Source of the DNA: an uncultured delta proteobacterium
GTDB lineage: Bacteria > Myxococcota > Myxococcia > Myxococcales > Myxococcaceae
Reading direction: 5' to 3'
NCBI GenBank assembly: GCA_963731795.1
Contig: CAVSWU010000003.1
Coordinates: 1,030,216 to 1,094,215, forward strand
DNA length: 64,000 nucleotides
Shown here: piece after piece, positions 29,226 to 34,580 of the stretch
Layout of the letters: every line of letters begins with the position of its first letter
Numbering within the stretch: position 1 is the stretch's first letter
The notes under the pieces: generated by a model
Told to the model about the DNA's origin: nothing
Databases searched by the model: none
What the model saw: only the letters and a program-made list of their open reading frames with translations
Translations under genes and position numbers: made by a program

Positions 29226-29942
29226 TCAACCCTGGGCGGGCGGTAGCTTGCTCCAGATGTCCTCGCCCAGCGTCGGCGCCACCTTGAACGGATCCATGTT
29301 GCCGGGCGTCAGGATCTCGGCCCAGTGCTTCAGGTGGTTCCAGAAGCCGCCCTGCCTCGGGTTGTAGCGATCCATGTCCACGAATGCGCCCGCAGGCCCG
29401 AAGCCGAGCTGCAGCGCGTACTTGGTGCGGTTCTCGCGCACGCCCCAGTCGCTCACTCCCTGATGGAAGAGCGACAGCGGCTTGTCCTCGGAGAACTTCC
29501 CGGCGCGGACCCCATCCTGCACGCTCGACTTGAAGTGGGCCATCGCCGCGGGATCCGGCTCGAAGAGGAGATCGAACCGGACGTTGTTGCCTCGGATGCC
29601 CTCGGCACCGCCCTTGAGCCGCAGCCCGGCCAGGTCCACCCCGTTGCGCTCGAGCCGCTGGGTCAGCAGGAGGAAGACGCCCCGCTGCTTCGGCGTGAGG
29701 CCCGGGTAGATCTCCCGGCCATTGGGACCCAGCAACCCCTGCTGCACCGCATCCAGCTCGTCGTACGCCTTCAGCCCATCCGCCGGGCGGGTACCGGTGG
29801 CCGTCACCCTCGCGGGAGCGAAGACGTCGACAGGCCGCTGCTCGGGGACGGCGGTGTTGCGCGCGGAGGGAGCACTCTCCACCCGAGCATCGGGCGACTG
29901 CACAGGCCGGAGGGCGGGGCGAGAGGAAATGGGTGTGGTCAT
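29226..29942 (-). CDS. hypothetical protein (238 aa), last gene of the MVP-containing gene string
   Basis: This is a clean ORF with no recognisable motif and no signal peptide. Confidence 0.4.
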   Translation of the reverse strand: MTTPISSRPALRPVQSPDARVESAPSARNTAVPEQRPVDVFAPARVTATGTRPADGLKAYDELDAVQQGLLGPNGREIYPGLTPKQRGVFLLLTQRLERNGVDLAGLRLKGGAEGIRGNNVRFDLLFEPDPAAMAHFKSSVQDGVRAGKFSEDKPLSLFHQGVSDWGVRENRTKYALQLGFGPAGAFVDMDRYNPRQGGFWNHLKHWAEILTPGNMDPFKVAPTLGEDIWSKLPPAQG

Positions 29943-30027
29943 GGAGGTCTCGGCTCCTCTGAGGCGGATATGTCCCGCAGGATACAAGCCTTCTCCCCAC
30001 GGCACGAGGGCAGGATGCCCCGTGTGT

Positions 30028-30795
30028 TCAATTCACCGAGGCCTCCACCTTCGCGAGGAAGCGCCGCGCGAAGACCCACGCATCCCCCGGGAAGCGCGCC
30101 GAGAGGTAGTGGCCATCCTCGACCACGAAGCCAGCCTCGGGGCGAGGGCGCCCACTGAGCACCAGCGGCCCCCGCTCGAACTGGGACGGACGGCTGAGCA
30201 GGGATCGCACCTCGTCCTCCAGATAGGCGTCATAGGTCCGGTAGTGCCGGCCGAGCCGCAGGAACGTCATGGCGTAGGCGCCAAACTCCATGAGCTTCGT
30301 GAGGGCGGTGGTGCGCCGCTCGTACAGGAGGCTGCGCCCGTCCGGGCCTTTCGTGCGCGCCAGCGCCAGGACTCCGTGGCAGATCGCTCCCACCGGCCGC
30401 CCCGAGGCCCAGAAGGCCGCGAGCTTCGCTTGCAGGACAGGACTCTCCAGATACGGGCGCATCCCGGGTGCGTGCCCCCCCGGTAGCAACAGCGCGTCGT
30501 AGGCATCAGGTTCGATGGCCTCCCAGCGGAGCGGTTGCTGGAACGCCGCATCCTTCTCCAACGCTCGGTAGCGTTCGAGCGCCTCGGGGCTGATGAGCAG
30601 TCCTTTCGGAAGCGGTCCTCCCAAGGTCAGGGGATCCGCTCGAGGCGCTCCCTGACCCAACTCGGAGGCGAACACCACCGTGTGCCCGGCCTGCGTGAGC
30701 ACGTGCCACGGGATGGCGATCTCCGTCGGATCGAAGTCACGGTCCGGCAGCGGCGCGAGGATGCGGCGGGAGGAAGGCTGGGAGGCTCCTGGCAT
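30028..30795 (-). CDS. DJ-1/PfpI-family (class I glutamine amidotransferase-like) protein
   Basis: It has LLLPGGHAPGM ... PVGAICHG, a nucleophile-elbow Cys in the DJ-1/PfpI arrangement. Confidence 0.6.
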   Translation of the reverse strand: MPGASQPSSRRILAPLPDRDFDPTEIAIPWHVLTQAGHTVVFASELGQGAPRADPLTLGGPLPKGLLISPEALERYRALEKDAAFQQPLRWEAIEPDAYDALLLPGGHAPGMRPYLESPVLQAKLAAFWASGRPVGAICHGVLALARTKGPDGRSLLYERRTTALTKLMEFGAYAMTFLRLGRHYRTYDAYLEDEVRSLLSRPSQFERGPLVLSGRPRPEAGFVVEDGHYLSARFPGDAWVFARRFLAKVEASVN

Positions 30796-30856
30796 GGTCG
30801 CGATGATCAAGCCAGCGATGCCGCGACGCAACAGGGCTGGGCATTTCTGCAACCCG

Positions 30857-34245: not shown

Positions 34246-34502
34246 ATCTTCGACTTCACGTGCGCCTTCGAGCGCAGGACGATGTCGTTGATGGCCCGCT
34301 CGAAGAAGTTCGCCTTGGTGAAGATCTCGGCGCTGACGCGGCTCTTGTAGAGCTCGCGCCCCTCGGCGAGCTCGTCCTTGAGGACGTCGAAGAGGTTGTC
34401 CTGCTCGATGCCCTTGATGATCTTCTGCTCGTTGTAGAGCGAGATATCCGAGGCAATCGCGCGGGCGAGCCGCATCGCTTTGACCTTTTCTTCTTCTGTC
34501 AT
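34239..34502 (-). CDS. small Lys/Glu/Ile-rich hypothetical protein (87 aa)
   Basis: MTEEEKVKAMRLARAIASDISLYNEQKIIKGIEQDNLF... It overlaps the RluA start by 7 nt and is the first gene after the promoter-like AT-richer region. Confidence 0.45.
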   Translation of the reverse strand: MTEEEKVKAMRLARAIASDISLYNEQKIIKGIEQDNLFDVLKDELAEGRELYKSRVSAEIFTKANFFERAINDIVLRSKAHVKSKIW

Positions 34503-34511
34503 TGCACTTCT

Positions 34512-34540
34512 TTCATATGCACCGCAATGCGGGCCGTCAA
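34512..34540 (-). promoter_or_regulatory. sigma-70-like promoter TTGACG-N17-TATGAA on the minus strand; the predicted TSS lies within a few nt of the ATG (leaderless)
   Basis: Read from the minus strand immediately upstream of the 87-aa ORF. The local GC dips here. Confidence 0.3.
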
Positions 34541-34580
34541 CATTCCTTGTGGGTCCTACTTTACCCTTCGTGTGGGCGGA

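Follow-up and report, generated by a model that had tools for sequence, protein, structure and literature searches.

Here, we show that the string of five co-oriented genes that includes a gene for a major vault protein (MVP) homolog in an uncultured myxobacterium is a mosaic. The string lies in a 64,000-nt stretch of contig CAVSWU010000003.1 (assembly GCA_963731795.1), referred to below as the window, and encodes an 87-amino-acid (aa) protein, an RluA-family pseudouridine synthase, MVP, a DJ-1-like protein, and a 238-aa protein. We favor, at a probability of roughly 70%, an explanation in which the string combines the gene pair romX-rluD with its own promoter, an independent MVP cassette driven by sigma-54 and an enhancer, and accessory genes for the DJ-1-like and 238-aa proteins. 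In this explanation, romX and rluD are the last two genes of a conserved block, served by their own conserved sigma-70-type promoter, and the MVP cassette is self-contained, consisting of about 160 nt of regulatory DNA and the 762-aa open reading frame (ORF); in Hyalangium, its place is a variable island bounded by rluD and the convergent gene HD_5. MVP would be transcribed from its own sigma-54-dependent promoter, with GG-N10-GC at 33196-33183, and activated by an enhancer-binding protein (EBP), encoded elsewhere, which would bind three dyads that include two perfect palindromes between rluD and MVP. The DJ-1-like and 238-aa genes are lineage-specific accessory genes, placed directly behind MVP in this strain only, where transcription from the MVP promoter might read through into them; this arrangement is recent and not conserved.

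Gene neighbors of MVP in other genomes

One genome per bacterial species was scanned with an alignment of 16 MVPs, which yielded 75 loci, each taken with flanks of up to 10 kb. Loci L001 to L023 are of the myxobacterial type, and the remaining 52 are mostly cyanobacterial. MVP lacks conserved neighbors in this sample. Comparison by tblastn with eight proteins encoded in the window matched its neighbors at two of the 75 loci only, both of them in Hyalangium. L001, from a Hyalangium metagenome-assembled genome (MAG), is collinear with the window apart from 1.2 kb of additional DNA in the stretch from MVP to the DJ-1-like gene. At L002, from Hyalangium versicolor, 6.7 kb separate rluD from MVP and 1.85 kb separate MVP from the DJ-1-like gene, and neither a 238-aa gene nor HD_5 was detected in range. 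The proposal of a first-pass annotation of this DNA that the neighbors of MVP encode vault cargo or assembly partners is thus not borne out by the neighborhood survey. Gene maps revealed wholly different MVP flanks in Archangium, Vitiosangium, 12 Corallococcus species, and several MAGs, and in the Corallococcus genomes examined MVP resides in a wholly different neighborhood from romX-rluD. All-against-all clustering of ORFs showed that neighbors are kept only within a genus, for instance among the Corallococcus loci. It returned no cross-genus neighbor cluster in myxobacteria or cyanobacteria and, at the 52 nonmyxobacterial loci, no neighbor with a consistent position. The only multilocus cluster, present at 14 loci, was considered as an MVP partner and rejected, being scattered in position, strand, and length. 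MVP occurs in Corallococcus, Hyalangium, Vitiosangium, Melittangium, and part of Archangium, and neither the protein search nor the genome scan detected an MVP in Myxococcus.

MVP of the window and its counterpart in Corallococcus coralloides are 86% identical, and the corresponding values for genes of the flanking block are 83% (RluD), 82% (HD_5), 84% (HNH), 79% (SelA), and 75% (ParA-like). MVP thus diverges in the manner of vertically inherited core genes, and its differing locations are better explained by relocation together with island turnover. Recent horizontal transfer was considered as the main cause of the differing MVP contexts and rejected on the same grounds. Integrases, transposases, and flanking repeats were all absent from the annotated flanks. 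As a separate observation, myxobacterial- or cyanobacterial-type MVP genes occurred in MAGs assigned to other phyla, namely L021 (labeled Planctomycetota), L022 (labeled beta proteobacterium), L060 (Actinomycetota), L041 and L058 (Anaerolineae), and L036 (Thiotrichaceae), which could reflect either misbinning or real transfer.

Variable island between rluD and HD_5

In Corallococcus (C. coralloides) and Myxococcus (M. hansupus), the rluD/HD_5 junction is empty and HD_5 directly adjoins rluD, which identifies HD_5 as the far edge of the island. Archangium gephyra carries one small SMR gene at this junction, and in H. versicolor and H. gracile a cluster of about 6 kb, comprising SDR, TetR, circularly permuted ATP-grasp, Alpha-E, and GATase/transglutaminase genes, lies between rluD and MVP. 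Given these differing contents, the rluD/HD_5 spot is variable, and its content in Hyalangium is an island to which MVP and the genes for the DJ-1-like and 238-aa proteins belong. The spot extends over 29217-33306 in the window, 3138-9842 in L002, 11203-17300 in L082, and 9251-9766 in L083.

The DJ-1-like protein scored 89.9 bits against PF17124 (cutoff, 30) and 54.1 bits against PF01965 (cutoff, 26.6), and an AICHG Cys-His motif in its translation places it in the DJ-1/PfpI superfamily; the specific NCBIfam equivalogs all scored far below their cutoffs. Among the 75 MVP loci its gene is present at L001 and L002 only, which makes it a Hyalangium accessory gene. For the 238-aa protein, which had no match to a described family, the search returned a group of 41 related sequences, with no named member from outside the myxobacteria; its structural model reached a predicted local distance difference test (pLDDT) score of about 95 over residues 50 to 238. 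Two homologs on long contigs are encoded beside VWA and M4-peptidase genes or beside other unrelated genes, and neither context has MVP or a DJ-1-like gene nearby. Judging from these homologs, the 238-aa protein is an uncharacterized member of a myxobacteria-only family and is not linked to MVP, contrary to its earlier designation as a candidate MVP partner. The lengths of 255 aa (start at 30795) and 238 aa (start at 29942) follow gene calls on identical metagenome copies.

The junction behind MVP distinguishes the window from its closest relative. At this junction, L001 contains the extra 1.2 kb with a gene on the opposite strand for a 385-aa coiled-coil protein. A gene of this kind, encoding 385 to 400 aa without a Pfam match, follows MVP closely, on the other strand, at four related loci (L001, L002, L004, and L082), for example at 12308-13465 (minus strand) in L001 and 12889-14091 (minus strand) in L002, and is missing from the window. 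Since the window lacks it, the adjacency of MVP and the DJ-1-like gene is strain specific. Of the ancestral sequence upstream of the DJ-1-like gene, only a homologous piece of about 40 nt is left in the window, within the 61-nt gap between the two genes.

These remnants bear on an alternative in which, in this genome alone, MVP and the two genes behind it were joined into a strain-specific new operon when the opposite-strand gene was lost, with one sigma-54-driven transcript, coexpression of the DJ-1-like and 238-aa proteins with MVP, and perhaps a functional link of the two to MVP. Gaps of 61 and 85 nt without a terminator-like site are compatible with such a transcript, and the DJ-1 promoter may be truncated, given how little of its ancestral upstream region is left. 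In each of the three Hyalangium sequences that are collinear (window, L001, and L002), the DJ-1-like gene is close to MVP, but the adjacency itself is unique to the lineage of the window, and L004, a Hyalangium MAG contig, carries a glycosyltransferase gene in place of the DJ-1-like gene. With homologs of the 238-aa protein in unrelated contexts, and considering that cotranscription would not imply physical partnership, we regard this alternative as unlikely.

A conserved cassette upstream of MVP

Judged by alignment, a cassette of about 160 nt is conserved upstream of MVP in 20 orthologous myxobacterial loci from at least four genera (alignment A2). When 400 nt were aligned, similarity started abruptly about 160 nt before the MVP start, exactly at palindrome 1, with unrelated flanks beyond; downstream, similarity between MVP loci ended at the stop codon. 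Mean pairwise identity among 21 loci was 0.59 over positions -175 to -1, 0.28 further upstream, and 0.73 at third codon positions, and several blocks upstream of MVP reached at least 0.9.

The first-pass annotation had pointed out two perfect palindromes between the synthase gene and MVP. Both are present, and palindrome 2 is larger than described there, with an 8+1+8 architecture. Neither type is rarer in the window than expected by chance, with four 8+3+8 palindromes versus 2.9 in shuffled sequences and 36 palindromes of the 6+1+6 type versus 38, and the dyad motif was not enriched over shuffles in the window. The significance of the palindromes therefore rests on their conservation across genomes. 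Palindromes 1 and 2 constitute dyad sites A and B and are followed by a third dyad, site C (Table 1), with center-to-center distances of 20 bp (A to B) and 23 bp (B to C). The dyad sites have CCA-N3-TGG cores; in site A, the 20 loci show no or almost no variation in the CCA..TGG core, and outer arm positions are often unpaired. A fourth, similar copy occurs in the window, the collinear Hyalangium loci L001 and L002, and L004, and the segment that contains it is deleted in Corallococcus.

The most conserved block of the upstream region is a sigma-54-type element, in which GGCA, T, and GCA (GGCA-N6-T-N-GCA) are invariant in the 20 loci; in 13 loci, the exact 15-mer precedes the MVP start by 52 to 59 nt. 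Sigma-54 promoters have the established consensus TGGCACG-N4-TTGCW (Barrios 1999), with which aGGCACGcggcTcGCA at 33197-33182 agrees at 10 of the 12 specified bases and in its GG-N10-GC spacing. With C 33183 taken as -12, transcription is predicted to start near 33171, which gives a 5' untranslated region of about 26 nt and dyad centers at about -120, -100, and -77. Dyad centers from -77 to -120, about two helical turns apart, are the usual enhancer arrangement of NtrC-type systems. The region is similar to sigma-54 promoters with activator sites, such as glnAp2/NtrC and the EBP-dependent genes of Myxococcus xanthus, in its GG-N10-GC element and in several dyads 77 to 120 bp upstream. It differs from them in that the second T of TTGC is replaced by C or G, the base before GG varies, no EBP is encoded near MVP as a counterpart of the known activators, and the transcription start is a predicted one. 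From this combination we infer that transcription of MVP is probably sigma-54 dependent and that an activator might bind at the dyads. The earlier suggestion that the palindromes gate MVP expression is retained to the extent that they are part of a region of about 160 nt that stays with MVP and plausibly controls its expression; we modify it into a putative enhancer combined with a sigma-54-type element.

Several points weigh against our explanation. The sigma-54 match has two mismatches to the 12 consensus bases, and matches with up to two mismatches are not above chance in the window, where six were found and 10.9 expected. A search of all frames for the GAFTGA motif revealed no EBP gene, either in the window or, at 23 loci, in the 10 kb to each side of MVP, and the divergent MVP locus L021 (67% identity) has no sigma-54-type element. 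A generic scan of 28500-37500 returned no terminator-like site on the minus strand, including the gap between rluD and MVP and the region after MVP, so transcription of romX-rluD may run into MVP. Finally, the genome scan relied on two peptide patterns and missed very divergent loci, such as those of Enhygromyxa, Plesiocystis, and Bacteroidota as well as of Saprospira, Microscilla, Herpetosiphon, Clostridia, and phage. As to candidates for the activator, a response regulator encoded upstream of MVP at L004 was considered and discarded, as its match was to the receiver domain only. M. xanthus is reported to possess about 53 sigma-54 EBPs (PMC3162934, citing Jakobsen 2004).

The imperfect sigma-54 match, which is not significant alone, and the lack of an EBP gene nearby would also fit an upstream region that holds a promoter of another class, recognized by sigma-70 or an extracytoplasmic function (ECF) sigma factor, with the dyads as repressor operators and GG-N10-GC as a coincidence. 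However, the positions that never vary are exactly GG, GC, and the consensus bases beside them, with the canonical spacing of 10 nt. The scan of 28500-37500 brought up no TTGACA/TATAAT-like site, and the layout of the three dyads, from -77 to -120 with steps of about two helical turns, is one usual for enhancers. On these grounds, a different promoter class is improbable.

We also considered that the palindromes act as RNA hairpins, either as a terminator without U-tract or 3' stabilizer of romX-rluD or as part of a structured 5' leader of MVP. Palindrome 1 begins 6 nt past the rluD stop codon and would, as RNA, form a perfect G+C-rich stem of 8 bp. In an explicit hairpin test, 78% of the cells were paired versus 29 to 44% in slid controls, but this symmetry is kept by the invariant cores, and outer stem positions were unpaired in 9 to 12 of the 20 sequences. 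Covariation was not clearly above that of shuffled alignments (31/500 and 53/500), and RNAalifold returned a covariation term of -0.18 with a weak energy for the upstream region. Symmetry maintained by invariance and without covariation fits protein-binding DNA better than hairpin RNA. The same sites precede MVP at loci without an upstream rluD, no T-run accompanies them, and they lie upstream of the -24/-12 element and thus outside an MVP transcript started there. Taken together, a hairpin function appears quite improbable, and we retain the explanation by protein-binding sites of a putative sigma-54 enhancer.

romX, rluD, and their probable promoter

The 87-aa protein, listed as an unknown small partner of MVP in the first-pass annotation, is an ortholog of RomX, a well-characterized protein of an unrelated family, and its annotation is corrected here. 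It is 93% identical over its full length to RomX of M. xanthus (PDB 8ZNA), with an E value of 1.9e-47 over all 87 residues, and agrees with this protein in sequence and fold (AlphaFold model, pLDDT of 81). The two proteins are alike in length (87 aa), in the three-helix bundle, and in the genomic block in which they are encoded, and we noticed no notable difference between them. RomX is a partner of the response regulator RomR and part of the gliding-motility polarity module, in which it binds MglA-GTP (bioRxiv 10.1101/2024.02.20.581209; PMC7332107); the capacity to bind the receiver domain of RomR as well as MglA-GTP is a biochemical property of the protein (bioRxiv 10.1101/2024.02.20.581209). 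By homology, the romX product of the window is a three-helix-bundle RomR partner that acts on the MglA GTPase in cell polarity and motility. RomX together with RomR is a proposed MglA exchange factor, and RomX has no known link to vaults. We detected 2,833 homologs of the 87-aa protein, with 85 to 98% identity across Myxococcaceae and Archangiaceae, including Myxococcus. A RomX profile search returned about 2,000 cluster representatives, some of them with two to five tandem RomX-like domains fused to receiver domains; such a large, often receiver-fused RomX-like family agrees with bioRxiv 10.1101/2024.02.20.581209.

The synthase passes the cutoff of the RluA subfamily model TIGR00005 (287.5 bits; cutoff, 192.7) and is closest to RluD, the 23S rRNA pseudouridine 1911/1915/1917 synthase, but scores below the cutoff of the RluD equivalog NF008385 (245.7 bits; cutoff, 351), and it is therefore filed as an RluA-family, RluD-like enzyme. 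Its gene follows romX in every genome examined. The start of rluD lies inside the end of romX, with an overlap of 7 nt through which the two genes are probably translationally coupled. In two Corallococcus genomes and in M. hansupus, the gene order is selA, HNH, parA-like, dnaJ/HTH_25, romX, and rluD, followed by convergent HD_5 and a HEAT-repeat gene, with overlapping ends of rluD and HD_5. In the window, romX holds the orthologous position, in the order parA-like, dnaJ/HTH, romX, and rluD as in M. hansupus and C. coralloides. Going by these gene orders, the block from selA to rluD is conserved across Myxococcaceae and Archangiaceae.

A sigma-70-like promoter had been proposed to drive the whole string from a site upstream of its first gene. 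The motif is present and conserved across genera, and it most likely serves romX-rluD and not an MVP operon. A sigma-70 scan rejects TTGACG-N17-TATGAA, whose -10 hexamer lacks the final T. A GTTGAC block at -35 and a TGC.TA.G.A block at -10 are nevertheless invariant in Hyalangium, Corallococcus, and Myxococcus, and the rest of the intergenic region diverges; because these blocks are conserved and their surroundings are not, we take the promoter as probably real. The -10 hexamer is separated from the romX ATG by 9 nt only, from which a leaderless or nearly leaderless romX mRNA is predicted.

A single five-gene operon read from this promoter, in which the pseudouridine synthase and the small and unknown proteins would be vault cargo or assembly partners, is scarcely tenable: the common strand, the short junctions, the lack of a minus-strand terminator-like site, and the conserved promoter would suit it, but no neighbor accompanies MVP outside Hyalangium, the first gene encodes RomX with its known, different partner set, romX-rluD is unchanged where MVP is not adjacent, rluD lies 6 to 7 kb of metabolic genes away from MVP in both H. 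versicolor and H. gracile, an opposite-strand gene splits MVP and the DJ-1-like gene in relatives, MVP has its own conserved -24/-12-type element and dyads, and neither vault RNA nor any other Rfam family was found in the window. The operon and partner reading also fails both of the refutation tests that the first-pass annotation had set for it.

The MVP protein

All five Pfam families of vault proteins, PF01505, PF17794, PF17795, PF17796, and PF11978 (Vault, Vault_2, Vault_3, Vault_4, and MVP_shoulder), were detected in the window MVP above their gathering scores. The GTG at 33145 was taken as its start, giving 762 aa, because this start is conserved in the orthologue alignments of the 20 loci; a conserved Shine-Dalgarno-like block, GAGCAGGTG, precedes the GTG or ATG start. 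The protein is 91 to 96% identical to those of Hyalangium, Archangium, and Vitiosangium, from which a Hyalangium-like myxobacterium follows as the source of the window, 85 to 96% identical to myxobacterial MVPs, and about 38% identical to eukaryotic MVPs. A phmmer search against PDB showed collinearity with solved MVP over the full length, including the cap-helix and cap-ring region: residues 117 to 749 matched rat residues 231 to 866 of 2QZV and residues 8 to 180 matched rat residues 16 to 184 (E value, 1.2e-137). In a second match, residues 1 to 180 corresponded to rat residues 7 to 176 and residues 117 to 749 to rat residues 220 to 854 (E value, 1e-137). Compared to rat and human MVP (PDB 4V60, 4HL8, and 2QZV), the window protein has the same domain order, with N-terminal vault repeats, an SPFH-like shoulder, a cap-helix coiled coil, and a C-terminal cap-ring. 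It is about 38% identical from end to end but shorter by about two repeats; of the nine repeats of the rat vault, about 100 residues, corresponding to about two N-terminal repeats, are missing. MVP lengths range from 754 to 765 aa at the Myxococcaceae and Archangiaceae loci, where the shoulder, cap helix, and C-terminal segment are retained, and L021 encodes 742 aa.

We know of no demonstration in bacteria of vault particle formation, which for MVP means assembly into 39-fold half-vault shells. With respect to the other components of the eukaryotic vault ribonucleoprotein, the window differs in having no vault RNA, no TEP1 (TROVE) or vPARP-like gene, and no conserved neighbor. An Rfam scan of the whole 64-kb window returned no family at the gathering score, including vault RNA and Y RNA. 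Such partners, not found locally, may be encoded elsewhere.

Bacterial MVP homologs, including H8MNI3 of C. coralloides, have been reported before (Daly 2013, PMC3762200; Sokolskyi 2019, bioRxiv 10.1101/872010) and are also the subject of a 2023 preprint on phage MVP (bioRxiv 10.1101/2023.11.10.566534). The window protein is of the same family and about 86% identical to that of C. coralloides. Passages of PMC3762200 and bioRxiv 10.1101/872010 cover protein sequence, modeling, and phylogeny; gene-neighborhood or promoter analysis was found neither in these passages nor by a term search of bioRxiv 10.1101/2023.11.10.566534. The conserved upstream cassette is an addition to this literature.

Implications for bacterial vaults

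RomX, RluA-family synthases, DJ-1-superfamily proteins, and sigma-54 promoters are all of known kinds, and in this respect the locus is an ordinary mosaic. To our knowledge, the function of vaults is unclear in eukaryotes and unstudied in bacteria. Gene neighbors fail here as a guide to bacterial vault partners, since none accompanies MVP across the sampled loci, and cargo or RNA partners, if any, are therefore to be sought biochemically. A new lead is provided by the conserved control region of MVP, which looks enhancer and sigma-54 dependent and makes the timing of MVP production tractable.

Many developmental and stress genes of myxobacteria are switched on by a sigma-54 EBP. We tentatively propose, as a possibility that we would not yet bet on, that myxobacterial MVP is a stand-alone gene under control of such a protein and that vault-like shells are formed only under particular circumstances, for example during starvation, development, or predation. 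If this holds true, the triple-dyad enhancer would offer a handle on the activator, on the inducing signal, and thereby on what would be the first physiological function of a vault in prokaryotes. A bolder version would regard the products of the newly fused DJ-1-like and 238-aa genes as coexpressed cargo in this strain.

Layout of the gene string

ORFs and Pfam matches confirmed five minus-strand genes between 34502 and 29226, as annotated earlier, with junctions of -7, 161, 61, and 85 nt from romX to the 238-aa gene; the co-oriented run reaches further upstream than had been noted and includes DnaJ/HTH, ParA-like, HNH, and SelA genes (Table 1). The G+C content of the window is about 69%. The convergent HD_5 gene ends 9 nt away from the 238-aa gene. 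The start of the DnaJ/HTH protein was placed at M of MKPFEQQTYYELL, following the gene call in L001. As synteny shows, Corallococcus, Myxococcus, Archangium, and Hyalangium all have the ParA-like gene in this place.

Table 1. Features of the MVP locus (coordinates refer to the window unless stated otherwise)
Feature	Position	Strand	Basis or remarks
Dyad site A (palindrome 1), GTGCGCCAgggTGGCGCAC	33282..33300	-	About -120 from predicted start; 5' edge of conserved cassette
Dyad site B (palindrome 2), CGCTCCAGtCTGGAGCG	33263..33279	-	About -100; TGGAGCG block nearly invariant
Dyad site C, TCCAATCTGGG	33243..33253	-	About -77; CC and GG invariant in 20 loci
Fourth CCNG-N3-CTGG-like copy, TCCCGTCTGGA	33205..33215	-	Alignment A2, pattern search
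Sigma-54-type element, GGCACGcggcTCGCA	33182..33196	-	GG 33196-33195, GC 33184-33183, 10 nt between
Sigma-70-type motif	34512..34540	-	TTGACG (34540-34535), 17 nt, TATGAA (34517-34512)
Junction differing from closest relative	30832..30862	-	blastn versus L001, L002, and L004; ORFs; junction sequences
romX, 87 aa	34239..34502	-	
RluA-family, RluD-like 23S rRNA pseudouridine synthase	33307..34245	-	S4 and PseudoU_synth_2; TTG start
MVP homolog, 762 aa	30857..33145	-	GTG start; longest ORF 30857-33220
DJ-1/PfpI-superfamily protein (ThiJ_like), 255 aa	30028..30795	-	ORF 30028-30852; likely start ATG 30795
238-aa protein	29226..29942	-	
HD_5 (HD-GYP-like) protein, convergent	27897..29216	+	Pfam HD_5; synteny
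DnaJ and HTH_25 (RodZ-like helix-turn-helix) protein	34581..36278	-	Pfam DnaJ, HTH_25; synteny; context only
ParA/MinD-like P-loop ATPase	36272..37279	-	Pfam ParA, AAA_31, CbiA; context only
Extra gene, 557-583 aa	37330-39160	-	L001 4266-6017; L082 5415-7088; L083 3964-5694

The block upstream of romX shows one further variation. Corallococcus and Myxococcus have no additional gene of this size between the HNH and parA-like genes; Hyalangium and Archangium carry at this position an extra gene for a protein of 557 to 583 aa without a Pfam match.

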